Source: a virus
Length of the DNA stretch: 64,000 nucleotides
Virus record (IMG/VR): IMGVR_UViG_3300017917_005108
Coordinates: 1-64,000 of that record
Direction: 5' to 3' (one strand)
The notes beneath the pieces were generated by a model. It did no database searches, was not told the DNA's origin, and was given only the letters and a program-made list of their open reading frames with translations. Every line of letters starts with the position of its first letter. Within the stretch, counting starts at the first letter, position 1. Both the position numbers and the translations under genes were made by a program. Of the stretch, positions 24,132-51,893 are shown in pieces.

Positions 24132-25481
24132 TTAAAAATTAAGATTTACCGGAGCCGGCTGTAAGACTGCTGGCCAGTTAGTTATAACATCTAATATACT
24201 GTAGTTATTAAAATTTTCTGAAAAAGATTTTATAGAATCGTTGATTAGTTCTTTTAGTTCTGTAATATCTTTTAAAACATTACTATCAGTAATATCGTTT
24301 TCGTCATCTAAAAATTTAAATATTTCTTTCTTTCTTTCTTCAAGATACTTTAATTTACTGTTAAAAATTTGCAATTTTATATCTTTTTGTTCTTCAGAAA
24401 GACTATCAGTTTCAAATAATTTTTTAACACTATTAACAGATAAATTGTTATCTGGTACATATATATTAATAGCTTTAATAAGTCTAAGAAGATAGTCATT
24501 TATTGCATAAAATTCAATACGCTTGTCTTCATAATCATTAGTAATAATTTTAATATCCTCACTACTATCTAAGCTAGCAGATGAATCTTTTGTGAGAACA
24601 TAAGTAGAGGTCTCTAAGTTAAAATTATTAAATGGCCAATAAAAGAATACATCGTCAATATTTTTAAAAACTGATAACTCTTCTATAAAATTTACTTTTG
24701 ATATTTTCTCAATTTCATTTTTATAACTGGCTTTTAAAAATCTACTATCTGTATTTTTCTCTGATAAATTTTCTATTTTTTTATTAAGCAAATCAATATA
24801 TTCTTCTCTCTTTTTTGACAAAACTGTATTCCAACAAGCTTTAATAAGTTCTCTTCTTTTATAATCGTCGACTTCGTTAATAACAGAAAGCTGAACTTCT
24901 TTATCAAAATGATATAGAATGTTAGCAATAGGTTGGCTTAGAGCGTCGATAACTTTTTTATTTTTAGAATAAAAAGCTTCTGCAAGAGCACCATCATACC
25001 TAACAATTAATAGGTCTAAGGTATCCATGTTAACATTGACTGGCTCGCCTAACATAGCATTACTTCTAAAAGCATCTATAATTTTTAACTCAATATCTGT
25101 ATTGCGTTGATAAGATACTTTTTGTGTTTTTCTTATTAACTTAAGTCTATCTATAATATACTTACAGTTTGATATTACATCATCTTTTAAAAAGTTACCT
25201 GGGGTTTGACCTGTAGGTATGCTTATAAAAATATTATATGATATATCTTTATAATCTAATGTGACTAAATTACCGCTTTTTAAATCAATAAAAGTTATGC
25301 TATTTTCACCTACTATAATTTTATTAGTGGGTACTGTATCTAAGCAATATTCTAAAAGCTCTTTATTAAGGGTTGTGAAATAAAAATTTTCGTTTGAATC
25401 ACCAACTATATTAATTTGCAGAGATAGCCCCCTTACAAAATGTTCTATATCTTTTTTTGTTATTAAAATTCTATTGCTCAT
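24132..25481 (-). CDS. Hypothetical protein, possible tail-fiber chaperone with two helical units ending in WP
   Basis: DVFFYWPF and DVITNWPAVLQP; last gene of fiber run. Confidence 0.4.
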   Translation of the reverse strand: MSNRILITKKDIEHFVRGLSLQINIVGDSNENFYFTTLNKELLEYCLDTVPTNKIIVGENSITFIDLKSGNLVTLDYKDISYNIFISIPTGQTPGNFLKDDVISNCKYIIDRLKLIRKTQKVSYQRNTDIELKIIDAFRSNAMLGEPVNVNMDTLDLLIVRYDGALAEAFYSKNKKVIDALSQPIANILYHFDKEVQLSVINEVDDYKRRELIKACWNTVLSKKREEYIDLLNKKIENLSEKNTDSRFLKASYKNEIEKISKVNFIEELSVFKNIDDVFFYWPFNNFNLETSTYVLTKDSSASLDSSEDIKIITNDYEDKRIEFYAINDYLLRLIKAINIYVPDNNLSVNSVKKLFETDSLSEEQKDIKLQIFNSKLKYLEERKKEIFKFLDDENDITDSNVLKDITELKELINDSIKSFSENFNNYSILDVITNWPAVLQPAPVNLNF

Positions 25482-26068
25482 GGGTATGTTTGGTTTGGAG
25501 TTTTTTTAAATTCTAGCTTGTTGCCACAACCCTCACTATCTTGAATCCAAATTTGAAAAGTTGCTGTACCTGCTGACATTCCAGAAAATGAATAATCTTT
25601 TGTGGGAGACCCTGATTGCCAGCTATCAAGACCTGCAGCAGTACCGAGATTTGTATTAACCCAGAAATAATATGGTGAACCTGCATCGCTATTTGATCCT
25701 TGACATCGTAAAGTAAAGGTATCTCTATTTCCTGAACCTATATTACTAACTGAAATTACAGGTTTACTATTATAAGAACTAAAAAACTCTGACATTCTTG
25801 CTGCTCTCCAGTTTGTAGAACCAAATGTAGATGAAATTGATTCCCAATTAGCGTTGGGAGCATAAAACCCACCATTTGCTACAGATTTTGCAGCTTCTAG
25901 TTGATATGGCATGCAAAGACTGTTTGCAGCACTGGCATTAGCGGATAATATACCACCCATTGCAGTTACTTCAGTCTGATCTAAAGAACTATTGGGATTA
26001 GTTAATCCCATATAAAATCTTATTGTACTAAACTGTAGTGGATTACCAGCGGTAGGTAGTCTAGCCAT
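25478..26068 (-). CDS. Putative fiber-associated/tip protein
   Basis: MARLPTAGNPLQFSTI N-terminus and RMSEFFS motif typical of genes following S74 fibers. Confidence 0.5.
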   Translation of the reverse strand: MARLPTAGNPLQFSTIRFYMGLTNPNSSLDQTEVTAMGGILSANASAANSLCMPYQLEAAKSVANGGFYAPNANWESISSTFGSTNWRAARMSEFFSSYNSKPVISVSNIGSGNRDTFTLRCQGSNSDAGSPYYFWVNTNLGTAAGLDSWQSGSPTKDYSFSGMSAGTATFQIWIQDSEGCGNKLEFKKTPNQTYP

Positions 26069-26072
26069 AAAC

Positions 26073-27683: not shown

Positions 27684-27684
27684 A

Positions 27685-28377: not shown

Positions 28378-28408
28378 TGAAATTATTTATTAAAAATACT
28401 CTATTTCA

Positions 28409-30028
28409 CTAGTTTAAATATATAATAGTACTATCTAAAGGAGCCTTTTTAACTTCATCTTTTAGAATATTTAAAAGATTTTCCTGTATGTCATATATCT
28501 TCTCTAGACATCTATTAACGACAGCATTTTGAAATACTTCATTTTTACCTATAAAAAAGTCAATATCAGTTTCAAAATAAATAGATTCTCTTTCTTCTAC
28601 TGTTAAATATCTTGTAAATTTAAAAACTATATTATTTTTTTCATCTCTTTTAAATAAAAATTTTCCTATTATTTGATCTCTAAATCTCATATGATTTATT
28701 AAAAGTTTAGAAAGTGCTTTATTAAAGATCCAGCTTTGAACATACTCTAATTCATTAAATTTGATTTCATCATATGTATATACATCATAATTAGGAATAG
28801 TTAAAATATCATATAGGTTTACATTATCGTAAAATGAATTAAACATAGGCGTGTTTCCGTTTTTTGTATATACTATATTTCTATCATTTTGATTATCTTT
28901 AGTTGGAATTGTGGTAAAACCGTAAACTATTTGAGGTGTGGTGTAGTTAAAGAGGTAGAACAAATATTTACCTATTGTTTCTTGAGGAAGTGAGACAAAT
29001 TTTTTATATATATTTTTGTTGCTAGTTACATAAAATATATTGTCATCTGTTTGTGAGAAAAATAAATTAGTAAAAACCTCATCATCATTAGTAATAGAAG
29101 AAAGAGATACAACAGTTTTTGTACTGAAATTACTGTCGTATTTTAATAATAAACTATTATTACATAATATATACATATTTCCAAAATTATCATTTTTAAT
29201 TCTTATAGGGTATGCGCTTAATAAATCTCTTTGTAAGCCGTAAGTATATTTCCAATTTAAATTTTCATCATATTCTTTTACACATAAATTTCCGCTATCT
29301 AAGATGTAGATATTATTATCGTAGTAGCTTATACCTCTTGGATTCTTAAATTCATACTTATCTTTTATAGAACCATTACCGCCAATAGCTTTTTGAAAAA
29401 ATAACCTATTGGTTAAAATATTATCATCTGTGTAGAGACCGTTACCATCGTACTTGTAAAGTTTACTTGCACTTAAATCTAAGACTAAAATACTATTATT
29501 TGGGCCTTTACTAATGTCGTTAATATATCCGAAATTAATACCGGTTGGCTGCTCTGTGCTATAATCAGTAGTACTCAATACAACTCCTATAGTAGATTGA
29601 TTTATATTTGAATCTAATAGTATTAATTTTTGTCCTGTTGTAGCTAGAATATTATATTTTTGCGCTTCAGGGTTATTTGCACCGTAAATTAATGTAAGAT
29701 TATCAAGGTCAGGGAGGCCTACACTTGAAAGAGGTTGAAATTGTTGTGAAGATGCACCATAATACCACGTAAATTCATTATGCAATGAAGACACACCAGC
29801 AATCGCTGTTGAAGATAGAGGAATTAAATTGCTAGCAATTTTACTGTATTTGTAGAGATATAAAAAATTATCATATAAATGTTTTATTTTTAAATTAACT
29901 AAACCTGCAGTTACGGTATCGTTTGGCGCTATTTTTATTTTATCTCTATTAAAAGGTAGAGTTAAATTATAACTTACAAATCTATCGTATATTAATCCTG
30001 AATTGTTAAAGACTTCTTCTATATTCAT
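28409..30028 (-). CDS. Putative virion protein with NHL-type beta-propeller
   Basis: FKNPRGI...IYILDSGNLCVKEYD. Confidence 0.6.
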   Translation of the reverse strand: MNIEEVFNNSGLIYDRFVSYNLTLPFNRDKIKIAPNDTVTAGLVNLKIKHLYDNFLYLYKYSKIASNLIPLSSTAIAGVSSLHNEFTWYYGASSQQFQPLSSVGLPDLDNLTLIYGANNPEAQKYNILATTGQKLILLDSNINQSTIGVVLSTTDYSTEQPTGINFGYINDISKGPNNSILVLDLSASKLYKYDGNGLYTDDNILTNRLFFQKAIGGNGSIKDKYEFKNPRGISYYDNNIYILDSGNLCVKEYDENLNWKYTYGLQRDLLSAYPIRIKNDNFGNMYILCNNSLLLKYDSNFSTKTVVSLSSITNDDEVFTNLFFSQTDDNIFYVTSNKNIYKKFVSLPQETIGKYLFYLFNYTTPQIVYGFTTIPTKDNQNDRNIVYTKNGNTPMFNSFYDNVNLYDILTIPNYDVYTYDEIKFNELEYVQSWIFNKALSKLLINHMRFRDQIIGKFLFKRDEKNNIVFKFTRYLTVEERESIYFETDIDFFIGKNEVFQNAVVNRCLEKIYDIQENLLNILKDEVKKAPLDSTIIYLN

Positions 30029-31755
30029 TAATTACTCCATTTAATTTCATTTATTTTTATATAAGCAGGAACTGTTTTAGCTAAAATAGAATATATTCTT
30101 TTTTCTATTTCTAACTTTAATTCATCGTTTAATATACTGCTATTTTTAAGAACTATATTCATTAAGGTAGATTTATTACCGGGGATACTAAATTTAAAGT
30201 ATCTTTCAATTTCTTCTAAATAATTTCTCCTACCACAAGCAGTGTCAAATACAATATCTTGAATTTCTCCAGAATTAGCTTTAGCATGAAACGCAATATC
30301 AAAATAATTTAAAGGTTCACTATATAAATAAAAATTTTTCATTGTAATACCTGTTGTGTTAAAATTATTATCTTTTAAAAATTCAAACAACGGTAGTGAA
30401 TTAGTGTAAGGTGCTGTTCCTATAAAAAACGGTCTATCTATTAAATTAGAAAATTCATATTTTCTTGGCTTGAAAGTGTCATTAGCTACTATTTGATTAT
30501 CTATTAGAAAATAAGCTGTTCCTGTATATGTATCTACACGGAAACAGAAATTATGGTATCCAGGATCTAGAGTGGATAAATTATATACCAAATTTACATA
30601 AGCATAATCTAGATTATTAAGAGAATTTACAAGTTTTAATTTAAAATTAATACTTGATTTTGGATATAAATCCAAAATATATTCTCTTAAATAGCTAGTC
30701 TGTGTTAGTGGGATATTTACTGACGGTATGTAGTAAATTTTATAATCTTTAAATATCTCTAAATTATCATTCATTTTTAAAAACTGTGTATGATAAGATC
30801 CTGAAGAAGAAATGCTTTGTACTAATGCAGTTTTTACTATTGTATTATTTTCTAATTCATAGGTAAAGTCTATAGACGTGCATGATTTTGCGAAATTTAT
30901 AGTTGATGCAGATGCAATAAACACTAATGTGCTATCAAATTTCGAAACATTTGTATTATTATGTAAAATCCATATATTACCATCTAGATCAATATTGTAA
31001 TTGTTTAAGATTGTCTGAGATTGAAAAACTTCTGAAACATCAAAAAATGGAGAGGTTATGTTTTTCCATTTATAGATAGAATTGCCGTCAACAAAATATA
31101 TAGTACTTTTTACTCTTTTAGAATTGTTTTTTCCAGTTAAGTATAGTTTATCATCGTATAAATTAATCGTAGTTGCTCGTGAGAGAATAGTACCATAAAC
31201 TTTTTTCTCAACATCAGTATCAGCTATTACATCTTGTATGCTTCCTGTGTCTAATTCAATACGAAGTATTGATCTTCCTGGGTTAGTATTAACAAGAAAA
31301 TAAGCATATTTTTCATCGTAATCATAATCTAAAAGCTCTGTTAGAAGTGAATTATATACTGAATATACCTCTACATTTAGATTTGTGTATTTTATAAAAA
31401 TACCTGTATCATATAGTATAAAATAATCATTAAATCCTTCTTTTCTTATAACAGCAATTGCTGAAGCAGGTAATTCTACAGTATTTAAAATATCAAAGTT
31501 TAAATTGGTAATTACTAAAGCGCTTGCAGAATTTATAAATAGTGTAGGTGTTAGGTAGTTAATATTAAAAATTCCAAAACCGTCATTTGAATAATTTCCG
31601 ATTAACTGATAAGAAAATGGCTTATTCCAGTCATCCGCATACATGTCAAATACTAGAGTGAAGTTGTTTGAATATTGTATAGAAGAAAGATTGGTTGTTT
31701 TACTATATGTATATTTGTCAAAATATACTTCTTCAGTGTCATAGTAAACTGACAT
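30028..31755 (-). CDS. Putative virion protein, LamG-like halves flanking a propeller-like insert
   Basis: FTLVFDMY..DW; GYHNFCFRVD...FLIDN...FFIG...MKNFYLYSEPL. Confidence 0.55.
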   Translation of the reverse strand: MSVYYDTEEVYFDKYTYSKTTNLSSIQYSNNFTLVFDMYADDWNKPFSYQLIGNYSNDGFGIFNINYLTPTLFINSASALVITNLNFDILNTVELPASAIAVIRKEGFNDYFILYDTGIFIKYTNLNVEVYSVYNSLLTELLDYDYDEKYAYFLVNTNPGRSILRIELDTGSIQDVIADTDVEKKVYGTILSRATTINLYDDKLYLTGKNNSKRVKSTIYFVDGNSIYKWKNITSPFFDVSEVFQSQTILNNYNIDLDGNIWILHNNTNVSKFDSTLVFIASASTINFAKSCTSIDFTYELENNTIVKTALVQSISSSGSYHTQFLKMNDNLEIFKDYKIYYIPSVNIPLTQTSYLREYILDLYPKSSINFKLKLVNSLNNLDYAYVNLVYNLSTLDPGYHNFCFRVDTYTGTAYFLIDNQIVANDTFKPRKYEFSNLIDRPFFIGTAPYTNSLPLFEFLKDNNFNTTGITMKNFYLYSEPLNYFDIAFHAKANSGEIQDIVFDTACGRRNYLEEIERYFKFSIPGNKSTLMNIVLKNSSILNDELKLEIEKRIYSILAKTVPAYIKINEIKWSN

Positions 31756-31789
31756 ATTATTATTTACTATTCAAGTTAGATACAACTAC

Positions 31790-32356
31790 TTATGAAATTT
31801 TGTTTATTTTCACATTAGCATAGATTTCTGTAGTAAAGTTACCTTCAACTCCAAATCCATTAGTGCTTTGGGTAGATTGACATCTTTGCTGTAATTCAAA
31901 CGTTTTACTAGAAGCAATAGTAAATCTACCTTGTATAATATTGTTTACAGTAACGTTTGAATAAGCGTAAATAGCTCCTCCTAGTAAAGTTGTAGATGTG
32001 TCTGTTATATTTTGCAGCCTTGCTTGCACTCTATTACAAGAATAGGCTGGTGCTACTGCAAAAAAATCATATGTACCTGGAGGCAAAGTAAACTGATTAC
32101 TAGCTAGTGAACATATATTGCCTGTATCTAATACTTTAGTATTAAGTGTTCTAGTTCTCCAATCACCGCTAGTAAATGACCCACCGGGGGTGTTTTGAGT
32201 TTTTTGATCCTGTAAAACTACTGTATAGTCAACTCTACCGGTTGAAACAGCAGAAGCTAATGTAGTTCTATACGTTACTACCCCAGTTGTTAGTGGAAAA
32301 TAGTCAAAACTAGCTGGCTGCTGTATAGGTAAATCTATAATTTTTACGTTTGCCAT
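31790..32356 (-). CDS. Small fiber/spike-like protein (C1q/TNF-like head)
   Basis: MANVKIIDLP N-terminus; WRTRTLNT...NQFTLPPGTYDF...FELQ. Confidence 0.55.
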   Translation of the reverse strand: MANVKIIDLPIQQPASFDYFPLTTGVVTYRTTLASAVSTGRVDYTVVLQDQKTQNTPGGSFTSGDWRTRTLNTKVLDTGNICSLASNQFTLPPGTYDFFAVAPAYSCNRVQARLQNITDTSTTLLGGAIYAYSNVTVNNIIQGRFTIASSKTFELQQRCQSTQSTNGFGVEGNFTTEIYANVKINKIS

Positions 32357-32366
32357 ATATTATTAT

Positions 32367-34232
32367 TTATGGTCCAGTTATTATATAGTCACCGCTATCT
32401 GCAATAATAGGATCACTTGCATCTGTTAATAGCTTATCTACTAAAGTAGGTGTAGGAGTGGGTGTAGGCGTAACAGTAGGTGTAGGTGTTGGTGTAGGTG
32501 AAGGACCAGGAATTGTTGGAGTAGGTGTAGGAGTTGGTGTGTTTGTAGGTGTAGGAGTAGGTGTAGGTGTGGGTGTGGGTGTAGGTGTTGGTTTTGGAGC
32601 AGTAAATCCATTAGTGTCTTTTTCTATTATATTAGTATTAAATAACTGTAACCCTTTTTGAACTAAACTACCTGTTAATGAGTTTAATAGGTTTATACTA
32701 AAATCTGGTCCTATATGATGATAGGCGTAATACGTGCCTTTTTCAAATACTAAACTTGAAGGTATGTCAAATACATCAACATAACCAAACAAATCATTAA
32801 TATCCTTTACCAAACAATCAAAAACTGAAGTAAATTCAATAGCATTAAAAGTAGATGCAGTCAATGCATTTATATAGGATACTTTTATAGGGTTATAATA
32901 TCTGTCTATCCATATTGGTTTAACTTTTGGGTCTAAACTACCAGAAAGCCAAGAGCATAGAAAATCACCAGATGTTTCTTCTAGTGTATTGCCAAAATAA
33001 CTATTTCTTGAATAGTTTCCTTTTTTCTTAAAAATTTTATCACTCTTAAGAGGATGATCACCTGGAATTGCTCCTGCCTCTATTAACCCTGAATCATTTA
33101 TATTAAGTTTTGTAAATGGATAAAATATTTGGGGTATGTGAAAATAAGTAACTTTATCTTTTTTAAGAATTATATTTGAAGTATAACTTTCATATCCAAC
33201 AGTTATATTATCATTTCCTAGTAATTGGTTAGATCCTGTAAACAGTTTTTTATAATCTCTTTGAACAATTCTTTGCTCATTAAAAAATGGGTTATTTCTA
33301 GATTGATAATTTTCAGGTGTATTAGAATTCTTTAAAGATAGTAAATTAATATAAATTTCATTGCCAGAAATAGTAAAATATTCATTATTAAGTAAAAAAT
33401 TATCAAATGCATCATTATAGCTTAAACTTTCATTTATTGGTAAAGAATTATTTTTAAAGTTTTTAAGATATGATACCCAGGGGTCTGAAATATCTGTAAA
33501 GTTAGGCCCATAATTTCTTTTAACACATCTAAAAATAGAATTGTTTGTAAAAGCAGCTTGAGTACCTGTAATGGGATCAACTAAAGTTAATTCATCTAAA
33601 TCAGGATTATAAGTTACATATTTTATAATATCATTTATATTTTTTTGCAATACTATAAAATTATCACCTCTATCATAGTTGTAGATAAAAATTTGAGGTG
33701 AATACTGTCCAAAATTATCTGCATCAATATCTTTACACATGCTTAAATTTCCTGTATAATCAAGTGTTAAAAATCTCTTTACACCGTCATTTTCATGAGC
33801 AATTTTACACAATGCATCAGTTAAAAATACAATTTCAAAAAAGTATCTGTTGTCAATTAAGTCACTTTTACCAGAAACTGCTACATTACAATTAAAAATG
33901 TTTGGTGATGGCTCTGCTGCAACCCAAAATTTAGAAAGCGGTGAAATAAAATCAATAGCGTTTACAGCAAGATAGGTAGAAAACCCCTCATCTGGTAATG
34001 GCTCTAATGGTTCTATCTCTAGAACATCAGATAAAAAATTAGTTTTAGAAAGATATAAATTCGAGTAGTTGTTTGTTGAAGTATCATTAGCATCTTTAAA
34101 AACACTTGCAAATGAAAAATTTATACTGTTTTCAGTATAAATGTTTTGTGTTTTTAAATTTAAAGTTTCGTCTAAATTATACTTGGCTGATAAGGGTATA
34201 AAATTAGTAGATGATAAGCCAAATACTTGCAT
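32367..34232 (-). CDS. Putative virion protein with C-terminal Pro-Thr stalk and terminal acidic peptide
   Basis: 621 aa; (PT)n tract then [19 protein letters not shown]. Confidence 0.65.
32445..32597 (-). repeat. (Pro-Thr)n coding tandem repeat
   Basis: Degenerate 6-bp GGTGTN/GGAGTN repeats on the + strand. Confidence 0.95.
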
Positions 34233-34240
34233 ATTATTAT

Positions 34241-39510: not shown

Positions 39511-39562
39511 TTAATTATTTAATTTTATATTATATTATCCAATATATAAATACATCTTTATG

Positions 39563-41139: not shown

Positions 41140-44100
41140 TTATAACACCTGAACAGAGCCAGGTGCAAATATCCCTTCATAATTAGTTTGTGTATTAAAC
41201 TTAAAGTATGTAAATTTTTGACCTAGATATATTGGATCAAAGTTTACAGTAGCAACAAAAGCATTATTAATATAGATATCCATTGTTAATGGTAAATCAG
41301 TTGGATACTTGTTATCATAGGAAAGAATATCGCTTTGATACAATGAAGCAAATGAAACACCATAATAGCCTACAACGCCTCCGGAGATCGGTATCTGTAT
41401 AGAGGAATCAAATGTAGTAGGCTCTACAGGAGTACTATAATCATTATTAAAGTAGCCATTAATATTGAAGTTTTTAATTTTTAATGTAGCAGCTGTTAGA
41501 CCAGAGCTATATGATAAACAAGGTCTAACTGCGTTAGGCGTTAAATCACCAAAATTATAATCAAGATAGGTAGAAAAATCTCTAGCACTTAATTCTTTTT
41601 GTTGAACTATAACTCTTTTACCTAAATCACAAAATCTAATTCTTATTCTTCTATATACAGGCAAATCTGTACCAGTTATTTGTTGATAAATTGAAATTGG
41701 ATTGTCAAAGCTAGATAAAGAGTTAGTTCTTGTTATAACTTGATAGTTATCATAAAATCCGCCTCTTAATGTTATAGAGTTTGATACGCTTGTAGGTAAT
41801 CCAGTTACACCATAACTTGAAGTGCCAAAATTACCAGTTGAGTCAAAGCCTATACCTAAGATACCACTATAAAGACCGTTATAATTTATAAATGCTGCGC
41901 CACCTGTTGAATTAGTACTCAAGTAATTAGCGTTTGTATAATTCAACCCATATCCTGGTGCGCCACCACTTACTATAGGTGTGTAACCTATTAAAGATAC
42001 ACAGAATCCTTCTCCTGCTTGTGTTGTTGAACCGTAGAAAGCATAATCAAAAGTAATTACTATATCTTTTCTTGTATCAAAACCGCTTGTGCTATAAATT
42101 AGAGTGCTTTTTGCACTTACAGGTAACGTATAAAAGCCTGTTGGGTAAATTGTCATGGTTGTAGTGGCTGAACCAGAATAATTACCGTTCACCGAAACAG
42201 CACTTACTGTATAAGAACCTGTTTCAATTGGAGTGACAAAACTACCTGAAGAAAGATAATAGGTTAACAACCCTACACCGGGATAAGAAGGTGAAAACGC
42301 TGACACGCTCTTTGGACTACCTGTATAAACAAAGCTGGTATTTGTAAATTGTATAAAATTAGAAATGTCTAATCTTGTTAGTGTAATATCAAATAAAGCT
42401 GTTGCAGGAGCAAAAACTGTAGTGGATAAAGAGCTTACTAAAACTGTTATTGTACCTGTACCAGATAAAGCAGAAACTGTTGGACTTAAAGTCTTACCAG
42501 GACCACTTAGAACTGTATAAAATGTTTGTAATCTGTTACCCAGGTATGATGCAGTTGCTGATAAGTCTAGGGTTTGTGTGTATTGAAGTGTTGCAGGCAG
42601 AGAAGGCTGAACTATAGATATTTTAGGAACAGGCTGGCTTACAGTATTGTTGGGTTCATCAGGGTATAAGACGACTCCCTGAGTAGACATGTGTGTATAC
42701 TGCTGATTGGAATAACTGGATCTGCCAGTTTTGTTGTTTGTATAATCATAAATGTAAGCGCCACCTGCGCACAGTGAGTAAAATAATGCATCTATAGATT
42801 CTGAATCTAGTAAATTGTTGTTTACATATGCTTCATAGGAAATTTTTGTAGAAGTAAGAACATTTATTGATGTTAAATTATTGTACTCGCAATGAATATA
42901 CTCTAACCCGGTGAGTGGTGTTAAATCTAATGTTGAAATGTTATTGTCTTGAATTTGAAGGTTGGTTATGTTTTTGCTGTAGTTTAAATTAATTGTAGAA
43001 AGATAATTTGTAAATGCTTGAAAATATATAAGAGACGAAAAAGCAGATAAATTGATACTGCTTAGCTGATTAGTATTAGCTGTAAACTCTGTTATACCGG
43101 AACATTTATGCAAAACGGTGAAATTGTTAATTTCTCTTAAACGGTTATTACTAATATTAACTGATGAAAGATTTACAGAGCCAGTAAAATCAAAAGACGT
43201 CAGTCCATTGTTATTGAGGCTTAGATAGGCTAGATTAGGGAGATTAGACAACGTAATGCTGTTAGCGTCTCCGCCTCCAAATACCAGATAGTTTAATACA
43301 GGGTAATTGGAAAAGTTAATAGATGAGATGTTATGATAATAAACATTTATTCGTTCCATTGTGCCTGGTAATGTTGGCAGCGATGTTAAGTTAGTATAAT
43401 AAAGAAAAATGCTTGATAAAACAGTACAATTTGTAAAATCAATAGAGTTTATAGGTCCATAATAATATATTTGATTTAAATTGTAGCAGTTAGAAAAATC
43501 TACAAATTTATTTGAAGATTGTATGCTGAGAAAATAGAAATAATTTAACTGTGGGTTGTTTTTTATATTAATGTTTTTTAATGGAGAGCCATCCATATAA
43601 ATGGTTTTTAAAACAGGAGCACCAGTCAGAGTGAATGCGCTCAACGAATTGTTGTATCTAGTAAAGAAAAAACTATCAAATGTTATAGAAGTTAAACTAG
43701 CAAAATAGTTGTTTTCAGTTTTAACTGCAGAAAGGTGCACATTTCCTGTAAAAACTAAAGTATCTATACTGCTTAGACCTTTAGTTAAATCTATTTCAGG
43801 GGCAGAAGTTCTGCAGTTAAAATATTTTAATGCACTCAATCCAGCTAGCTGCACAGATGATAGACTGTATGAATTAAGTGTTAATGATATTAAATTGTTT
43901 AGTGTATTGTAATTAAAGGAAGTGATAAAACGTGAGTTAGTAAACGCAATATTTTCTAAATTGTTAGGTATTGCAGGTAGAATTAAAGATCTTAGATTAG
44001 ATGTGGCTCCTAAGTCTAAAAATTTGAGGGCTGACAGACTTGATATATCTAATGAAGACAGGGATTGGCTATTAAAGAGGTTTAAAGCTGTTAGAGAGTC

Positions 44101-45246
44101 TGCTAAATTATCTAAATTTAGTGAAGTCAGGGAACAATTTAATGCTGATAAATTTCTAAGCTTAAAAGAAGATGGGTAGTTATTAAAATTTATTTCAGTT
44201 ATAGGATTACAAGATACATCAAGTGTTTCAAGTGCAGATAATGCTGATAGACCTATAATAATGTTTAAAGAACTTAAAGAACCAACAGGAGAAGAAAAAT
44301 AATTATAGCCGCCTACATCTAAATACTGTAATGCTGTTAGACCTGTTACATTAAGTGATGTCAGAGGATTGGTATTCAGATACAAGTATTGTAGAGCAGG
44401 TAAATTTATTAGAACAGGATCAGTAATTAAGTTACCATTTGTTAATCCAAGATTATAGTAAGTAATTGGATCGTACCCACGGCGATCACCGAGGTGTAAA
44501 TAACTCAAAGTAGGTATGTTTTGTAATACAAAAGAAGTTAGCTGGTTGTTATTACAGAAAAGATATCGCAAACTGCTCAAAGGCCCAGTAAAATTAAATG
44601 AGCTTAATCTACTAGTGTAATTGGAATAGATGTTATGAGGCCCTAGATTTAAAGATGCAATACCACTAAGAGCTCTGGTATCAGATAGTGTAAAGTCTAA
44701 TACTTTTAATGGTGTTCTACCTATATCTAATGAAAATAAGCTACAATTATTAAATTTAAATGCACTAAGATAAGAGCTGTCTAGATTAAGGTAAGATAAT
44801 TTAGTACCACTTAAATTAACATACTGATATGATCCATTGCGTATGTCTAGACTAAAGAGGTTTTGTAGTCCTATAACTCTGATGCCTGATATACCGCCTG
44901 TCCATGTGTAGAAATTATATAAAGAAGCATTTTCCCTTAGATCTGCTTCAAACAATGTATTGTTCCCTGCTCCATGAAATGTCACCAGGTTAGGAAATAA
45001 TCTGAAATCTAAATATGTAAGAGACTGCTGAAATGGTAGTTCATAAAGTCCGCTGTATAAATCTGTTACTAAAGCCAATCTAGGTGAAGTGTTTTCAATG
45101 TAAAGTGTATTGTTACCGACGTTTAAGCCTTCTTTTTGCACATAATAATCAGTGCCAGAGAGTAAAGGAGGGTATGGTACAAAAAAAGCAGATATACTAC
45201 TTGTTTGATTGTTATTGCTTGCGGTTGCTGCTCTTACCCATGCCAT
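41140..45246 (-). CDS. Giant LRR protein with MBG-like and L-type lectin-like domains
   Basis: LxxLxLxxNxLTSL repeats; FVYTGSPK...GSYTVSAV...NYSGSAT; GEGFCV...LGIGFD. Confidence 0.8.
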   Translation of the reverse strand: MAWVRAATASNNNQTSSISAFFVPYPPLLSGTDYYVQKEGLNVGNNTLYIENTSPRLALVTDLYSGLYELPFQQSLTYLDFRLFPNLVTFHGAGNNTLFEADLRENASLYNFYTWTGGISGIRVIGLQNLFSLDIRNGSYQYVNLSGTKLSYLNLDSSYLSAFKFNNCSLFSLDIGRTPLKVLDFTLSDTRALSGIASLNLGPHNIYSNYTSRLSSFNFTGPLSSLRYLFCNNNQLTSFVLQNIPTLSYLHLGDRRGYDPITYYNLGLTNGNLITDPVLINLPALQYLYLNTNPLTSLNVTGLTALQYLDVGGYNYFSSPVGSLSSLNIIIGLSALSALETLDVSCNPITEINFNNYPSSFKLRNLSALNCSLTSLNLDNLADSLTALNLFNSQSLSSLDISSLSALKFLDLGATSNLRSLILPAIPNNLENIAFTNSRFITSFNYNTLNNLISLTLNSYSLSSVQLAGLSALKYFNCRTSAPEIDLTKGLSSIDTLVFTGNVHLSAVKTENNYFASLTSITFDSFFFTRYNNSLSAFTLTGAPVLKTIYMDGSPLKNINIKNNPQLNYFYFLSIQSSNKFVDFSNCYNLNQIYYYGPINSIDFTNCTVLSSIFLYYTNLTSLPTLPGTMERINVYYHNISSINFSNYPVLNYLVFGGGDANSITLSNLPNLAYLSLNNNGLTSFDFTGSVNLSSVNISNNRLREINNFTVLHKCSGITEFTANTNQLSSINLSAFSSLIYFQAFTNYLSTINLNYSKNITNLQIQDNNISTLDLTPLTGLEYIHCEYNNLTSINVLTSTKISYEAYVNNNLLDSESIDALFYSLCAGGAYIYDYTNNKTGRSSYSNQQYTHMSTQGVVLYPDEPNNTVSQPVPKISIVQPSLPATLQYTQTLDLSATASYLGNRLQTFYTVLSGPGKTLSPTVSALSGTGTITVLVSSLSTTVFAPATALFDITLTRLDISNFIQFTNTSFVYTGSPKSVSAFSPSYPGVGLLTYYLSSGSFVTPIETGSYTVSAVSVNGNYSGSATTTMTIYPTGFYTLPVSAKSTLIYSTSGFDTRKDIVITFDYAFYGSTTQAGEGFCVSLIGYTPIVSGGAPGYGLNYTNANYLSTNSTGGAAFINYNGLYSGILGIGFDSTGNFGTSSYGVTGLPTSVSNSITLRGGFYDNYQVITRTNSLSSFDNPISIYQQITGTDLPVYRRIRIRFCDLGKRVIVQQKELSARDFSTYLDYNFGDLTPNAVRPCLSYSSGLTAATLKIKNFNINGYFNNDYSTPVEPTTFDSSIQIPISGGVVGYYGVSFASLYQSDILSYDNKYPTDLPLTMDIYINNAFVATVNFDPIYLGQKFTYFKFNTQTNYEGIFAPGSVQVL

Positions 45247-45252: not shown

Positions 45253-48200
45253 TTAGAAAGTTAGTTCTCCTCCGGTTAGAGTTGGCGTATCACCTATTAC
45301 AACAAAAGTGCTGTAATTTAATAAATTAGTTGGATTACTAAAATTGTTGTGTATTGTTCCTATATTTGGTCTATACATACTACTTTGTATATTAGTTAAT
45401 ATACCGTTAAAGTATTTAAAGTCTGTTACAAATGCATAAAACATATTAGTTGTATCTTTGGCAAGATAGGTAATACTATATATATTTGTTTCAGAATTTA
45501 AAGTCATAATAGGCTTGTCTATAGTAATAATATCAATGTTCTGGTTAGTACCTGTTAGACTAAACTGTACTACGTCAAGATAGTTTACATCTGCAAGCTT
45601 TTTGTAAGGGTAGAGCTGTACTAAACTAAATGTGTTTAAATTTAAAGAATATATAACAGGATATATTGATTTAAAGTTTGAAGCACTAGCTATAGGGTGT
45701 AGTGTTGTTTTTGCAAAAATAAGTTCATTATTCTTTTCATCAAACCAAACAGTGGAAAACTTTTCAAATTCTTTATTAATACCTCTTTCTACATAGGTTT
45801 CGTTATTAGAAGGTGTCCTGACATTATTAGTGGAATAATTAAAATCAATTTTATCAAAAATTAAATGATTTTCTGTTTCAACTTGTAATGTATCATAATA
45901 TACATCAAAATTAATAACACAGTTATTAACCTCTTCTCTTATATGTTGAGGGTATTTTATAAAAATGCTTGAAAGTGCAGAAGAAACTGGTTCTATTAGA
46001 GAAGAATTAGAATTTCTCATATAAAAATCTCCATATGTAGAATATCTAGTATTGTAAATAGAAACTTTACCTGAGGAGCCTGTTAAAGTAGGTACATATT
46101 CAGTTTCTCTATTTTGTAGTCTGATATTAAAGAAATTACTAGGTAATGTAAAATCAGGCTCCTGTGTAAATTGATCATTACAGGGAGTAAATTGATCGGT
46201 AAAACTACTTACAACAAAATAATAACCTAGATATTGTGGTAAAGCAGAAGCTGGGGGTTCAAATGTAAATGAAGCTGCATATGCAAATGTGGGTCTATAA
46301 TCAGGTGCAATAGGATTAGCTCCTGCATCTACAAGCTCATCATAAAAAGTTGGTGTTACATTAGGTACAAATGAGGGGTTATCAGTGCAGGGATCAACTA
46401 ATAAAGTTCCATTTGGTGAGATAAAAGAAAATCCGTCTTTAACATAGCAAATAATTGTAGTTTTAACTATTTCTGAACAAAATCTTTCTGGTTGAAATGC
46501 ATAGGATGCAATGTTATAAGGTGAACCAGAAAGAGCAAATTCTGGTATACCGTCTGTGTACTGTGTTGCTGAAAGCGGTGATATTGCAGTAAGAGATCCA
46601 GAATAAACAAAATAACCTGATCCTGGAGGATAGTTATTAGTTGTTCTTAATATAACACCAGAATAATTTTTTAAAGCATTAATTTCTGTATAATCAAAAT
46701 TAAATCCTGATACAACATCATAAAAAACATGTCCATCTATTATTAAACAATCTTTATCTGTTAAAAGACTACCACTATTTGAGTATGCAGATAAAATACC
46801 GGAAGTGTTTTTAAAGTCACCAGTAATTTTGTATAAACCATAATCATTACCATAGACATCTGATTTAAATTGAACTAATGTTTTGTTAAGTGAAAGTAAT
46901 TTTTCAAGTCTTAAATCTATTGGGTATTGGTTAACAGGGTGGAGAGGATATATATCATCATTTGCCCAAGTATCTTTTTTATAATTTTTAAAAAATTCTT
47001 GAGGGTCTATATATCTAGATAATCCTTGATTAGAAAATGTTATGCTTTGCTCTCTGCTTTGATATCCTCTAAAAGTATGTAATAGAGGGTCACTTTTAAC
47101 ATCGCCGAATTTATAGCCGTTTGTATAATCTATTTGAGTAAAGCTATTATCTTCTATAAAAATTAAGGGTGACTCTTGATCTTGCTGTGTATTACCTGAG
47201 ATATTTCCAAATTTACTTGGATCTGGAAAAATATAAACAGTGTTGGGTGTTAAAGTAGAAACACTTACTGTTGAAGTAAAATTAAAATTATAAAAATTAA
47301 GTAGCCCTAATTTATCTGGTTTAAAAAACAATCCTTGTGCTTTTGGTGTTTTTAAAAGACTTTCTTCGGGTACAAATGCTACAGTTGGAGAAGTTTTATT
47401 TAAATAGTTTGCAAATGGGCTCTCTGCTTTAAATAAAATACCAGAGGTAATATTTGTAACTGTATTTCCGGTTGATACATAATAAAAATCTGTACCCATG
47501 TATTTTTTTGTAACTTCTTTAAGTAAGCTTAGCCTTAAATTATTTTGACTATTATTGTTTATATTATTAATAAAGTCTCTATCTTTAAGAAAGTTTAATT
47601 GGGTTGAATTAATTGTTGGTGTAATAGAGAAATTATTTGTACCTAATTCAACTAAAAAGAATGGGTAGCTTGTGATTGCATTTACTATAGATTTGTCAAA
47701 ATTTAAATAATAATTTGCATCTATATCTAGTAAATTAAGAACAAATTCAGTATTTCGTAATCCTGTTGCCCCGTAGGCTGATGCGGGTAAAGTACCTAAA
47801 TCAAAATAGCTAGAATTATTATCATATAGTTCTTCTAACTCTACTATTATGTTATTTCTTACTGCAGAGGGAGTAATATTTAGAGTTTGAATTAGTTCAG
47901 TTAAATCTTGTGCTTCTAAACTTTTTGATATTTCATTGTAGATTAGTTTTTCTACGCCGTATATACTACCCTTTAGGTTATACTCAACAGCGCTAAACTT
48001 TGCTTTATCACGTAAAGTAGAGAAATATATACAAATATCCTTTATTTTTTTAGCAAAAAATGGAACTGCAATAGCTAAGTCTCTAGGGCTGTTTTTATCT
48101 ATATTTTGTAAGAATCTTCTTTCATCAATAGATGAATAATTTAAAACTATTTCTGTTATAAAGTCTTTATATAATTCGGTAATAGCATCAGAAGATGCTT

Positions 48201-48411
48201 GAGGCGCATAATCTTTAGCTTCAAACCAATTATTAAGATAATTGTTATATCTTTGAAATAATTCTTCTGTACTTAGGGATAAGGTACCGTTATATTTTAA
48301 CCAGTCTATAAATGATATAGGTGTTGTTCTATCAATTGGAAATTCAACTAATGTGTCTTTAGTAATAGAATTATCTAATTTTTCATCTACAAATCTATTA
48401 ACATCTGGCAT
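45253..48411 (-). CDS. Large putative virion structural protein
   Basis: 1052 aa within baseplate/tail run; TAAATA-N5-ATG. Confidence 0.6.
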   Translation of the reverse strand: MPDVNRFVDEKLDNSITKDTLVEFPIDRTTPISFIDWLKYNGTLSLSTEELFQRYNNYLNNWFEAKDYAPQASSDAITELYKDFITEIVLNYSSIDERRFLQNIDKNSPRDLAIAVPFFAKKIKDICIYFSTLRDKAKFSAVEYNLKGSIYGVEKLIYNEISKSLEAQDLTELIQTLNITPSAVRNNIIVELEELYDNNSSYFDLGTLPASAYGATGLRNTEFVLNLLDIDANYYLNFDKSIVNAITSYPFFLVELGTNNFSITPTINSTQLNFLKDRDFINNINNNSQNNLRLSLLKEVTKKYMGTDFYYVSTGNTVTNITSGILFKAESPFANYLNKTSPTVAFVPEESLLKTPKAQGLFFKPDKLGLLNFYNFNFTSTVSVSTLTPNTVYIFPDPSKFGNISGNTQQDQESPLIFIEDNSFTQIDYTNGYKFGDVKSDPLLHTFRGYQSREQSITFSNQGLSRYIDPQEFFKNYKKDTWANDDIYPLHPVNQYPIDLRLEKLLSLNKTLVQFKSDVYGNDYGLYKITGDFKNTSGILSAYSNSGSLLTDKDCLIIDGHVFYDVVSGFNFDYTEINALKNYSGVILRTTNNYPPGSGYFVYSGSLTAISPLSATQYTDGIPEFALSGSPYNIASYAFQPERFCSEIVKTTIICYVKDGFSFISPNGTLLVDPCTDNPSFVPNVTPTFYDELVDAGANPIAPDYRPTFAYAASFTFEPPASALPQYLGYYFVVSSFTDQFTPCNDQFTQEPDFTLPSNFFNIRLQNRETEYVPTLTGSSGKVSIYNTRYSTYGDFYMRNSNSSLIEPVSSALSSIFIKYPQHIREEVNNCVINFDVYYDTLQVETENHLIFDKIDFNYSTNNVRTPSNNETYVERGINKEFEKFSTVWFDEKNNELIFAKTTLHPIASASNFKSIYPVIYSLNLNTFSLVQLYPYKKLADVNYLDVVQFSLTGTNQNIDIITIDKPIMTLNSETNIYSITYLAKDTTNMFYAFVTDFKYFNGILTNIQSSMYRPNIGTIHNNFSNPTNLLNYSTFVVIGDTPTLTGGELTF

Positions 48412-48419
48412 TGAATTAT

Positions 48420-51400
48420 TTAATTATTGTATACAATATCAACAGTATTAGTAAATAGCTTTAAGCCTTTAGTTAGCTCATAACTTAAAATATTTTGCAT
48501 GATTCCGTTATTCTTTGACCAGTCTTTATAAGAGCTTAATGTGGGAGACAGTAGATTAATTGGGTCATTCCAATTTAAAATATTGTTATAGAAAGAGTTT
48601 TCAGTAATATCATTAAATTGATAGAAGGAATAATAATTTTTAATATTTATACCAGTAAGACTCTTAGGCGCTACTAAGCCCCAGCCCCAGTCATACGTGT
48701 ATGAACTTAAAGGTAATATATCTCCTAAATTATAGCCTTTGATATTAGATGTGTTTACTATTGTATAAAGGTCAGAGAAGAGCTCTAAAGCTACTATAGA
48801 TTTTCCAGAAATAATAGTACCTGACAATACATTTATTTGATTGCCTAAATTTATTCCATATTTTGAGCTATTAATATATCCTTTTTTATCAAAATTTCTA
48901 TTAAACGTATTTCTATCACCCCAAAGTATTTTGTGTTTTATTGATAAAAGATCTACAAGTCTTCTTAATTGAGGTGGAAAGGGATAATTATATTCCTCAA
49001 ACTGTAGACTTAACTCATCGCAAAAAGATAGAAGTTTATCTAAATTGCATTTATCTATATCTGAGTTGTTGGAAACAAAGTTTGCTGTTTTTTCATATAC
49101 TACTTTTCCCAACTCATAAGGTTGAGCACTAATGCTGCCTACTATTGTGCTTAAAAAATTATCAAAAAACATTTTTTTATTAAAAAGAACTTCTTGATAT
49201 CTTAAATCTTTATAAAAATTACCAGCATCAAAATCTTCATTTATTTTTGTAACGTTATATTTACCGGTAGAAGGATATACGTTAAAAAGCGCAGACTCGC
49301 CAGATAGATATCTTGTAACATTAAAAGGAACCATATATTTGTTAATCCATCTTGATCCAATCCAATCACCGTAGGCCTGGAATATTCTTTCTTGGAAAGC
49401 AGATACGGGATTAGATGTTGAATCTGGAGGAAACTCTAAAGTAATACTGTCAACACCTGCAATAGAAGACATGCTTTCGTTAGTAGTGTCAACATAATAC
49501 AATTTGTTTTCAAAATTGTTTATTACCCAAAGATAATTTGCAGTATCACATGCAATACCACCTATACTACCTATATAGTTTGTTGTGTTAACACCGGAAC
49601 CGCCAGGAAAAGAAGTAACTTTTTGAGGATTATTTGCATCTAGCTTTATTATTGTTTCTCTATCATTAACAACATAAGCATTTTGTGCACCATCAACAGT
49701 TATATTGCCTGCTAGTCTAAACCCTGTAAGAGGATATCCTGTGAGAAGGTTACCGTCTTTATCAAACTTATATACAAAATCATTTTTACCTGTTAAAGAA
49801 ACAGAAGGTGAAACAGGATAATTCATATTTAAAGTAGTAAGCCATACATAATTGTTTCTATCAACACAAATTTCTACCGGGGATATTAAACTTGGAAATG
49901 GTATTACTTTTATAAAATTACCTGTATCATCAAATTTAAATAAAAAGTTTGATATTGGATGTGTATAAGCAACCCATATATTATTTTGTGTATCGGTATC
50001 TATAGATGCAGGTAGTAAAGTATTTTCACCAGCAAATCCACTTAGGGGAGCTAAATTGTAATCAGAACTTAAAGCATACACCAGATTTTTATACATAGGT
50101 ACAGCAACAGATTTTGCTTGTCCTGTATATCTATCAATTTTTATTGATGAGACTGCATCAAAAAGTGTAAACCATACATCGCTATTACCGTCCATAACAA
50201 TACTCGCAGGAGCAGCGCTAGATAGTTCTGTTGATCTAAGATCAACATAGTAGGTAGAGTTGTATCCTGAAAAAGGATATGAAGATAAATTAAATGCAGA
50301 GAGAATTCCGCCGTAAATATCAATTTTATAAATTTTATCTGCTTGTCCGTCTGCTACCCATGTTCTATAGTCTTCACCAAACCCTGCTCCAGATGGTGCA
50401 ACTTGAAATGAATAGCTTTCAACACTTCCAGGTGTATCATAATCTGATACATAGGCTGAAAGAAACTCTTCCATTGTACCATCACAGTAATTAAAGTTTC
50501 TAGTTTTAAAAATACGTTTTACCTTGAAGTATTGTGGCATAGATACCCATCCTACTAAACTATCTTTAGGAAAGTTTACCGGGTCAACAACAGTCATGCC
50601 AGCAGTTAATAATAAATTCTCACTGCTAATATGAGGAATAAAATATCCTTTATAAAATCCACCAATGCTTCTTGGTATATCAACAGAAAAATCACTATAA
50701 AAGCTTACTGCAGATATACAGGTGCGAGTTAAGTCATTATTTTGCTTTACTAAGCTTATGGCTAAATCATAAGAAGTGACATTTTGCGCAAGAGTTTCAA
50801 TTGTAGATGATGATAGAGGTGGATATGTTTTTGTAGTATAATTTTCAAAATCTTTCATTCTAATAACAAAAGGTATCTCAGTATACTGCCAACTAATTTC
50901 AGGAATGTTAAAGTTAGTTGCTGACAAAGCACCTTCGCCATCAATACCATTGGAAGTAATGCTCAGTCTACCTGCAGAATTATGTCTAACTTTAATAATA
51001 GGTAGACATGCGGGGTCTAGTTGCTGAAAACCGTAAGGCGGATATCCAACGTAGTCTTGTATGCTAGTAACCATGGAGTATGCATCTTTAAATTTTGCAT
51101 TGTCAAAAGTAGCAAAAATTAAAATTGGCGGTTCTCTTGTAGTGTAATTTTTTGTTCTATCATCAACATAATAAAATTCTGCATATCCGGTGGTACCGGC
51201 AAACCTAGATCCAGTGTCATTCTCTTGACACTGTTGAATATTGTTATTAACTATGTTTGCGTATATTTTTGTATCTTTTGTTATCACTTTATCAACTATT
51301 ACAAATTCATCAAAATCTCCTATTTTTTGAACTTCATAAAGTCGTGACAAACTTCTTAAATGACTCCATTTGTCTCTAATAAAAGAATTATAATCAATAT

Positions 51401-51893
51401 AGTCTCCAGCTGCTCCAGAAGCATAAAGATTTAATGTATATCCTTCTGCACTTAAAGCTCTATAGGACTGCCAACTATTTTGACGTTGTATTGTGAGAGG
51501 CTCTATAATTCTACTAGCTGGTACGTCATATATAAAACGTTTAAAATCTTTGAACCCTAATTTATCTGCAACAAAGTCGTAAATTGCAATGGTTGGTTGA
51601 TAACTAGAATCGTATGCATTACCATAGCTGTCAAATATAACAAGCTTCGGTTTATAAAAACCGGGGAATTTATAATGATGAGTAGCTGTTAAATCGTTTG
51701 AGTAAGTTCCATCACCAAAATGCCATTCAATTTTTTTATTACTAATAACTGTAGATCCGGTTAATAATGGAGAAGAAGTAAAATCAGGAATAAAAGTTAT
51801 AGGTGTTATATCAAGAGAATATGAAGAAAGGGTATTATTTCCTGAGTAATCTCTAGTATAAAAATAGAGATATGTGTAGTTTAAAGATTCCAT
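48420..51893 (-). CDS. Baseplate-associated protein with PKD domain and beta-propeller
   Basis: IEWHFGDG...HHYKFPGFY; DxxNxVW repeats; directly after gp6-like gene. Confidence 0.7.
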   Translation of the reverse strand: MESLNYTYLYFYTRDYSGNNTLSSYSLDITPITFIPDFTSSPLLTGSTVISNKKIEWHFGDGTYSNDLTATHHYKFPGFYKPKLVIFDSYGNAYDSSYQPTIAIYDFVADKLGFKDFKRFIYDVPASRIIEPLTIQRQNSWQSYRALSAEGYTLNLYASGAAGDYIDYNSFIRDKWSHLRSLSRLYEVQKIGDFDEFVIVDKVITKDTKIYANIVNNNIQQCQENDTGSRFAGTTGYAEFYYVDDRTKNYTTREPPILIFATFDNAKFKDAYSMVTSIQDYVGYPPYGFQQLDPACLPIIKVRHNSAGRLSITSNGIDGEGALSATNFNIPEISWQYTEIPFVIRMKDFENYTTKTYPPLSSSTIETLAQNVTSYDLAISLVKQNNDLTRTCISAVSFYSDFSVDIPRSIGGFYKGYFIPHISSENLLLTAGMTVVDPVNFPKDSLVGWVSMPQYFKVKRIFKTRNFNYCDGTMEEFLSAYVSDYDTPGSVESYSFQVAPSGAGFGEDYRTWVADGQADKIYKIDIYGGILSAFNLSSYPFSGYNSTYYVDLRSTELSSAAPASIVMDGNSDVWFTLFDAVSSIKIDRYTGQAKSVAVPMYKNLVYALSSDYNLAPLSGFAGENTLLPASIDTDTQNNIWVAYTHPISNFLFKFDDTGNFIKVIPFPSLISPVEICVDRNNYVWLTTLNMNYPVSPSVSLTGKNDFVYKFDKDGNLLTGYPLTGFRLAGNITVDGAQNAYVVNDRETIIKLDANNPQKVTSFPGGSGVNTTNYIGSIGGIACDTANYLWVINNFENKLYYVDTTNESMSSIAGVDSITLEFPPDSTSNPVSAFQERIFQAYGDWIGSRWINKYMVPFNVTRYLSGESALFNVYPSTGKYNVTKINEDFDAGNFYKDLRYQEVLFNKKMFFDNFLSTIVGSISAQPYELGKVVYEKTANFVSNNSDIDKCNLDKLLSFCDELSLQFEEYNYPFPPQLRRLVDLLSIKHKILWGDRNTFNRNFDKKGYINSSKYGINLGNQINVLSGTIISGKSIVALELFSDLYTIVNTSNIKGYNLGDILPLSSYTYDWGWGLVAPKSLTGINIKNYYSFYQFNDITENSFYNNILNWNDPINLLSPTLSSYKDWSKNNGIMQNILSYELTKGLKLFTNTVDIVYNN

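Follow-up and report, generated by a model that had tools for sequence, protein, structure and literature searches.

A Leu-Ser-small tripeptide is enriched in the outer virion proteins of an uncultured T4-like phage clade

Introduction

TibC heptosylates many Ser residues of the bacterial adhesins TibA and AIDA-I (PMC4358343), O-glycosylation in Bacteroidota follows the sequon D-(S/T)-(A/I/L/V/M/T) (PMC8550257), and phage-encoded glycosyltransferases have been described as glycosylating the virions of mycobacteriophages (Freeman et al. 2023, cited in PMC12801897). Here, we analyze 64,000 nucleotides of viral DNA (positions 1 to 64,000 of IMG/VR record IMGVR_UViG_3300017917_005108; hereafter the window), in which a T4-like phage encodes outer baseplate and fibre proteins with many copies of a tripeptide made of Leu, then Ser or less often Thr, then a small residue (Ala, Gly or Ser). 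An earlier note on this DNA had pointed out that such words recur across unrelated virion proteins and had proposed that they are a modification sequon like that of Bacteroidota. We show that the excess is restricted to outer virion proteins, is spread clade-wide and is conserved in position, and we weigh what could have produced it.

Results

The minus-strand block at 24-64 kb of the window is that of a T4-like myovirus, with genes for gp25-like, gp6-like and clamp-loader proteins. Downstream of gp6 stand thirteen large proteins with PKD, NHL-like, leucine-rich repeat (LRR), RCC1, LamG, BNR, gp38-like, Mtd_N and S74-chaperone domains, and we define the fibre block as the 13 open reading frames (ORFs) within 25478-51893. 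LSA occurs 29 times in this block, compared with 3.65 +/- 1.9 occurrences expected from our main control of 2000 shuffles per protein, and none of the 2000 shuffles reached 29. Eleven of these sites lie in the protein of 1368 amino acids (aa), six in that of 1098 aa and four in that of 1157 aa, and the enzyme island at 9-24 kb contains a single LSA (ORF 13451-14596); the earlier note had given all of these counts exactly. Both strings that it quoted, ILSAFNLSSYPFSGY (residues 530-544) and LLTGYPLTGF (residues 716-725), are present in the 1157-aa protein. Its further statement that LSS, LSG, LTG, VSA and ISA are numerous stands in part: LSS (29 observed vs 7.7 expected) and LTG (16 vs 5.1) are clear, with no shuffle in 2000 reaching either count, whereas LSG (12 vs 5.3; 20 of 2000 shuffles) is weaker and VSA (6 vs 2.4; 68 of 2000) and ISA (7 vs 3.0; 56 of 2000) are weak.

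Stricter controls lowered the ratio and left the excess in place. The expectation for LSA rose to 4.9 when residues were shuffled only inside 20-residue blocks and to 10.4 under a first-order Markov model (P = 1.7e-6). The earlier note had suggested a comparison with shuffles that excludes LRRs, and with the LRR protein left out the enrichment persists, at 18 LSA vs 2.7 (P = 6e-10), or vs 6.3 under the Markov model (P = 1e-4). Ranked by enrichment, LSA is third among all tripeptides of the block, behind the linker words TPT and PTP. The same residues in permuted order are not enriched (LAS 4, SLA 1 and ASL 4, vs 3.7 expected). For the union L-S-[AGS], the fibre block has 70 sites vs 16.6 (z = 14.6), and the reverse word [AGS]-S-L has 25 vs 16.4; after removal of the LRR, RCC1 and LRR_5 proteins these figures become 35 vs 9.1 (z = 9.0) and 12 vs 9.4. 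Elsewhere in the genome (42,600 residues) there is no excess, with 48 L-S-[AGS] vs 43.3. Because the 29 LSA sites are written with varied codons (six for Leu, five for Ser and three for Ala), the excess lies at the level of the protein and not of a DNA word. These results confirm the excess of L-S-[AGS], its dependence on order and its protein-level nature, and make the case stronger than the earlier note had put it.

The source genome is a single contig of 162.5 kb with 31% guanine-cytosine (GC) content. Among cultured phages, cyanophages and the pelagiphage Mosig come nearest, with clamp loaders that are 36-39% identical and gp6 at ~25%, and a search of 50,697 phage records gave no match to the 1157-aa protein. 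A gp6 relative is encoded on 107 viral contigs from metagenomes, and the two largest conserved proteins have 149 and 181 homologues. A search of genome contigs matched two contigs of unclassified metagenome-assembled genomes (MAGs), which gave no clue to the host. For comparison across the clade, we clustered all proteins of six genomes, namely the source genome (G000) and five large relatives taken whole (G001-G005).

The excess follows the fibre region through this clade. Over 80 related loci, LSA numbers 221 vs 35 downstream of gp6 and 29 vs 32 upstream. Within the six genomes, the fibre region has at least 10 families, distinct by BLAST, that carry L-S-[AGS] at 3.3-6.3 times expectation, compared with ratios of 0-2.4 in the families of replication, head, sheath and inner baseplate. 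The motif, fixed beforehand, was then tested independently in 28 families (12,044 residues), which are segments of the relatives' downstream proteins that have no BLAST similarity to anything in the source genome; LSA (17 vs 4.2), LSG (21 vs 5.5) and LSS (18 vs 7.5) were all in excess, and the reverse words stood at 0.5-0.9 times expectation. The two remote MAG contigs show the same excess, and their gp6 is again empty of sites. Outside the clade, there was no excess of LSA in cyanophage S-SM1 (12,860 residues of baseplate and fibre proteins; 4 vs 5.2) and none of L-S-[AGS] in T4 gp7-gp12, wac and gp34-gp37 (7 vs 7.8), and the fibres of Mosig, whose genome has 33% GC, gave 18 vs 11.8, which we count as no such excess. 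Since none of these three phages shows it, the excess is specific to the clade's outer virion proteins and is not a property of fibres or of low-GC phages generally.

The motif also does not belong to one fold. An all-against-all BLAST comparison of the block's fibre proteins found only one paralogous pair, and an LRR-like context (LxxFxF, or hydrophobic residues at +3 and +5) surrounds 52 of the 273 clade sites (19%), compared with 8% in the background. The earlier statement that this is not one domain's consensus is borne out by these two results together with the number of distinct families enriched. The LRR consensus (LxxLxL), tried as a general source of the motif, was rejected on the same 52 of 273 sites and holds for the 1368-aa protein only.

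Over ~80,000 residues of clade fibre proteins, all three positions show an ordered preference. Before S-A, Leu is enriched 6.5-fold, Val 2.4-fold and Ile 1.9-fold, and Phe stands at 1.0-fold; the second position favours Ser (6.5-fold) over Thr (2.8-fold); and after L-S the order is Ala (6.5-fold), Gly (4.8-fold), Ser (3.7-fold), Thr (1.9-fold), Ile (1.2-fold), Met (0.8-fold), and Leu and Val (0.7-fold each). The flanks carry a weak signal, the strongest part of it being Pro at -1 (2.5-3.2-fold), and Leu at +5 is enriched 2.0-fold. Three known signals were tried against this profile and rejected: an N-X-S sequon of the HMW1C type, read as N-L-S, since Asn is not enriched before Leu and PF13844 has no match; a lipobox, L-S-[AG]-C, since Cys is not enriched at +3; and a site resembling those of signal peptidase, for which positions 1 and 3 and the depletion of Pro at +3 fit, but many internal cleavages are implausible.

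Conservation was followed in detail in the family of the 1157-aa protein, for which 86 sequences at 38-84% identity were aligned. This family has 19 site columns, defined as columns where 40% or more of the members show L-[ST]-[AGS], and 7-18 L-S-[AGS] per sequence. Motif Ser is identical in 74% of cases and Ser or Thr in 89%, compared with 45% and 56% for other Ser residues (P = 0.002). Where it is lost, the replacement is mainly Asn, Gly, Lys, Pro, Asp or Gln and rarely Ala or Cys, and such polar replacements are as expected for an exposed hydroxyl. The family of the 1052-aa protein (86 sequences) has 5.3 L-S-[AGS] per sequence vs 1.5 expected, with seven fixed site columns that nearly all fall in the C-terminal half. 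In the two families, the conservation of Leu and Ser (0.79/0.74 and 0.76/0.64) exceeds the family means (0.64 and 0.60), and that of the flanks (0.44-0.62) is lower, a comparison that carries ascertainment bias from the choice of sites.

In the AlphaFold model of the 1157-aa protein, coil holds 13 of the 19 motif Ser, strands hold five and a helical turn one, and the sites occupy non-equivalent positions of the propeller blades. In the model of the 1052-aa protein, the four sites that lie in confident parts are all in coil or turn. The description of the motif as selected, made in the earlier note, agrees with what we see: its order matters, the Ser/Thr hydroxyl is kept, a small residue follows, and the sites lie mostly in loops with variable flanks. 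A repeat consensus of the propeller blades was rejected as a source because of the non-equivalent blade positions. A cap at strand starts was likewise dropped, as 7 of the 19 motif Leu begin a strand compared with 33 of the 69 other Leu, and so was a helix N-cap with hydrophobic staple as the main cause, since helix occurs between L-2 and L+5 at 2 of the 19 sites and the helix-rich rest of the genome has no excess.

The 1157-aa protein (48420..51893, minus strand) is encoded right after gp6, in the position of gp7, and combines PKD (a Pfam match) with a predicted beta-propeller of NHL/YVTN type; its AlphaFold 2 model has a mean predicted local distance difference test score (pLDDT) of 81.6, and the Foldseek matches of this model are NHL, YVTN with PKD, and Vgb lyase. 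It has 14 L-S-[AGS] sites, four of them LSA, alongside the 19 L-[ST]-[AGS] sites counted at family level. Residues 531-538 (50280..50303, minus strand) form a tandem pair, LSA-FN-LSS, which in the model spans a strand and then a tight turn, and the corresponding family columns read L70/S54 and L76/S77 of 86 sequences. LLTGYPLTGF is encoded at 49719..49748 (minus strand), with L67 I15, S54 T18 and G86 at column 722. Next to it, the 1052-aa protein (45253..48411, minus strand) has no Pfam family, and its AlphaFold 2 model is of low confidence (pLDDT 63.7).

Two of the remaining proteins owe part of their content to known repeats. The 1368-aa LRR protein (41140..45246, minus strand; Pfam LRR_4, LRR_EndoS and MBG_3) has 11 LSA, 11 LSS and 5 LSG, and the majority of its sites lie inside the LRR consensus L-S-x-L-x-x-L. 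The 520-aa protein (39563..41125, minus strand) has Pfam RCC1 repeats and a Pro-Thr linker, and its motif content is partly the RCC1 consensus A-L-[ST]-x-x-G, a repeat consensus seen in the relative's protein G001_32136. The 1098-aa protein (36214..39510, minus strand), with LamG-like and BNR/sortilin-like parts, has 6 LSA vs 0.33 expected, all outside recognisable repeats. Four further enriched fibre proteins, of 658 aa (LRR_5 and gp38-like), 621 aa, 575 aa and 539 aa (NHL-like), lie within 28409..36217 (minus strand) and have family ratios of 3.9-5.0; a 188-aa ORF in the same interval has no L-S-[AGS] site. Counted as sequence only, each large fibre protein offers 14-27 candidate sites.

The gp6-like baseplate wedge protein (51893..53755, minus strand; Pfam Gp6-like, tblastn to cyanophage gp6) is the internal contrast, with 0 L-S-[AGS] vs 4.3 expected across the six genomes. 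More widely, gp6 and the inner-baseplate proteins (window 51893-53755 and 56816-64066) are below expectation, and four further families stand at 0-0.46 times expectation in the six genomes. This shortage could be avoidance, but the sequences depend on one another through ancestry. At the other end of the block (window 26073-28377, minus strand), two adjoining proteins start with Mtd_N, the N-terminal domain of the major tropism determinant, and the first of them ends in the intramolecular chaperone Peptidase_S74; in these two, the most distal fibre proteins, Leu-Ser-small sites are almost nil. Outside the fibre block, a locus of the closest relative (G001:149638-153652, L088) encodes a trypsin-like protein of 425 aa (GDSGS) with 4 LSA, next to one of 550 aa that has 5 LSA and a Pro-Thr linker at its N-terminus. 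The motif therefore also marks accessory proteins that are possibly virion-associated.

The enzyme island (8997..24095; characterised by Pfam matches and composition) encodes GT31-like, GT8 and GT32-like glycosyltransferases (GTs), a PIG-L deacetylase, an amidotransferase, a PhyH oxygenase, six radical S-adenosylmethionine (radical-SAM)/SPASM proteins and a UDP-sugar dehydrogenase-like protein. The six radical-SAM genes are consecutive (window 13451-20621), and in four of them SPASM lies ahead of the radical-SAM core, opposite to the order usually seen. At 25% GC (window 8001-24000), compared with 31-35% in the fibre block and 31% in the genome, the island's composition fits a recently acquired or fast-exchanging cassette. 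In tblastn searches, it is almost private to the source genome, and weak homologues of a few genes turned up in the closest relative only. Radical-SAM domains occur in one of the five relatives, as a single weak homologue in G001 and none in G002-G005, GT8 occurs in one of five, and PF11397 in two of five (G001 and G004). Every genome has some glycosyltransferase, but the families differ, with GT2 in G001, G002 and G004 and GT1 in G003 and G004. The earlier note had set the island against the tail proteins in a way that implied a link between the two; this link fails, as the island is nearly private and relatives without radical-SAM, GT8 or GT60-like genes show the same excess. We thus rejected both a link to the six radical-SAM genes, given their distribution, and a link to GT8 or GT60, given their patchy presence in relatives.

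The Pro-Thr linkers follow one of the glycosyltransferases more closely. The GT60-like gene (PF11397, E = 1.4e-55; 2047..3291, plus strand) is found in G000, G001 and G004, is not on the 61%-complete G002 contig and is absent from G003 and G005. Pro-Thr linkers, which in the source genome fall within 32367-41125 (minus strand), occur in G000, G001, G004 and one G002 protein, with none in G003 and G005. In this small sample, in which relatedness is a confounder, PF11397 tracks the Pro-Thr linkers and not the Leu-Ser-small motif. Because the linkers are confined to the PF11397-bearing branch, they would be the likelier substrates if the island glycosylates virion proteins. Separately, the clade's core genes include GTP cyclohydrolase I, a QueF-like nitrile reductase and a formyltransferase (G000:107875-108531, 134547-135497 and 137372-138750), which suggest DNA modification of the 7-deazaguanine type.

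Discussion

We tentatively favour the view, as a real possibility that falls short of probable, that some factor reads L-[S>T]-[A>G>S] in trans as a tag, for which O-modification of the Ser or Thr would be the first candidate. A large uncultured T4-like clade would then carry a selected short linear motif in surface loops of its fibre and outer baseplate proteins; Leu and the small residue would define the site for that factor, and the hydroxyl would be modified in the host cytoplasm ahead of virion assembly. The leading chemistry would be O-glycosylation, by analogy with the cytoplasmic hyperglycosylation of bacterial adhesins. Since the modifying enzyme would not come from the adjacent island, either the host or a phage gene that has so far gone unrecognised would have to supply it. 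Three points here are inferred: the existence of a reader, the modification of the hydroxyl and its chemistry. We favour this reading because the excess is found in one clade and one protein class and is ordered, with a preference for Leu and for Ser, and because the hydroxyl is kept, with polar replacements where it is lost, in sites that lie in loops and share no single structural context.

Several observations weigh against such a tag. The ordinary consensus of LRR or RCC1 repeats accounts for a share of the excess, and the control phages T4, S-SM1 and Mosig differ in fold content and are not fold-matched to the clade. No enzyme was found that co-varies with the motif across the six genomes. 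The 38 families common to G000, G003 and G005, of which 34 occur in all six genomes, serve virion structure, replication or the 7-deazaguanine pathway and include no recognisable protein-modifying enzyme, and the relative G003 (148.8 kb) has 183 L-S-[AGS] vs 62.7 though it has no radical-SAM, GT2, GT8 or GT60 match. GT9 (PF01075) and GT41 (PF13844), the families that hold adhesin-modifying enzymes, have no match in the 162.5-kb genome. The relatives themselves are contigs at 51-77% estimated completeness, which makes gene absence in them weak evidence. Finally, site positions that stay fixed at deep divergence (38-84% identity) also fit a buried structural anchor, 228 of the 339 replacements of motif Leu are hydrophobic, and hydrophobic residues are enriched and charged ones depleted at -5, -3, +3, +5 and +7, as in beta-type flanks.

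These last points speak for an intrinsic structural motif, in which Leu anchors the end of a loop or strand in the core, Ser or Thr caps backbone amides and the small residue allows a tight reversal; the excess would come from beta-rich modules (LRR, RCC1, PKD, propeller and LamG) that favour this arrangement, with no reader involved. We hold this explanation to be only slightly less likely than the tag. It gains from the presence of Asp and Asn among the Ser replacements, as in capping residues, from the occurrence of L-[ST]-x inside the LRR and RCC1 consensus and from the independence of the motif from any enzyme island, with no co-varying enzyme. However, the sites have no common secondary structure and are neither strand starts nor helix N-caps, LRR-like sites are only 19%, and preferences for Leu over Ile and Val and for Ser over Thr are unusual for beta-strand packing. 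The helix-rich rest of the genome also lacks the excess, as do the beta-rich gp6, sheath and inner-baseplate proteins of the same phages and the fibres of T4, S-SM1 and Mosig.

The other explanations carry much less probability. Hidden common ancestry would have the fibre proteins built from a small pool of modules by duplication and shuffling, with Leu-Ser-small as the last recognisable remnant. Fibre genes are indeed modular and exchange parts, homology among the relatives is partial and domain-wise, IPLSA near the N-terminus is common to two proteins, and internal LRR and RCC1 repeats multiply the motif. Against this, there is the single paralogous pair, the flanks are nearly uninformative (at most the Pro at -1), and the sites lie in different folds at non-equivalent positions, so that we consider common ancestry improbable. 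It seems equally improbable that the motif binds an assembly factor or chaperone that is specific to fibres and holds unfolded outer-virion proteins, a role of which T4 gp57A and gp38 are examples. The motif is clade-specific, pairs a hydrophobic anchor with small residues and is confined to the class of proteins that need dedicated folding helpers in T4-like phages, but such motifs rarely need a hydroxyl, and here Ser or Thr is kept at 89%. In addition, no candidate factor was found, and the 1157-aa protein in the gp7 position carries the motif too; its T4 counterpart gp7 is not known to depend on such a fibre chaperone. An artefact of composition, multiple testing or a DNA-level word has next to no chance of being right: the motif was picked after looking at the same data, in proteins rich in Ser and Leu, but the excess survives all composition controls, the codons are varied, and the independent replicate in 28 families and two MAG contigs refutes this reading.

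In phages, host range is determined by the receptor-binding proteins, which are also the parts most exposed to the environment. If a clade-wide tag were present on such proteins, it would be a layer of virion biology that is absent from the phage model systems, for example a coat, of sugar or otherwise, with effects on stability, adsorption or recognition, and it would offer a simple sequence rule for spotting outer virion proteins in uncultured phage genomes. A broader version, in which this clade marks its outer proteins by cytoplasmic O-modification at Leu-(Ser/Thr)-(Ala/Gly/Ser) and other clades use other tripeptides, which would make such coating widespread, strikes us as unlikely, though conceivable. 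Were the motif purely structural, it would still be a marker of the clade's fibre modules and a caution against reading sequons from tripeptide counts. In either case, our analysis separates two neighbours in the same genome, Pro-Thr linkers that track the GT60-like transferase and a Leu-Ser-small motif that is independent of the island.

Among described systems, the phage proteins can be compared with the targets of TibC and AAH, in which a soluble enzyme modifies many Ser residues of the beta-rich adhesins TibA and AIDA-I, at dozens of sites per protein, and this modification is needed for adhesin function (PMC4358343). On the phage side, the large outer proteins have many candidate Ser sites. 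Unlike that system, the source genome has no GT9-type or TibC-like gene, and whereas the sites of TibA and AIDA-I lie in one repeated fold, those of the phage are distributed over many folds. The resemblance to the Bacteroidota sequon is one of form only: both consist of three residues centred on Ser or Thr, with a small or aliphatic residue next, and both occur across unrelated proteins. The analogy drawn in the earlier note breaks down at the defining Asp, as position 1 is Leu (6.5-fold) here and, in the same ~80,000 residues, D-S-A is depleted (0.4-fold) and D-T-A stands at 0.9-fold. The third position differs as well, since Gly and Ser are outside the sequon and Ile, Leu, Val and Met are not favoured in the phage proteins (0.7-1.2-fold). 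The Bacteroidota system acts on exported proteins, and phage virion proteins stay cytoplasmic until lysis.

With the mycobacteriophage case, the window has in common phage glycosyltransferase genes (GT31-like, GT8, GT32-like and GT60-like) beside structural genes, and here too virion proteins would be the substrates. The substrates described for mycobacteriophages by Freeman and colleagues are reportedly proteins of the capsid and tail tube, for which a tripeptide of this kind is not known to have been described. Here, unlike in that case, the glycosyltransferase families change from genome to genome and the motif is constant. Finally, the familiar LRR (L-S-x-L-x-x-L) and RCC1 (A-L-[ST]-x-x-G) consensus sequences account for the majority of sites in the 1368-aa protein and for some in the RCC1 protein. 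They cover about one-fifth of the clade sites, and without those proteins the excess of L-S-[AGS] in the fibre block is still 35 vs 9.1.

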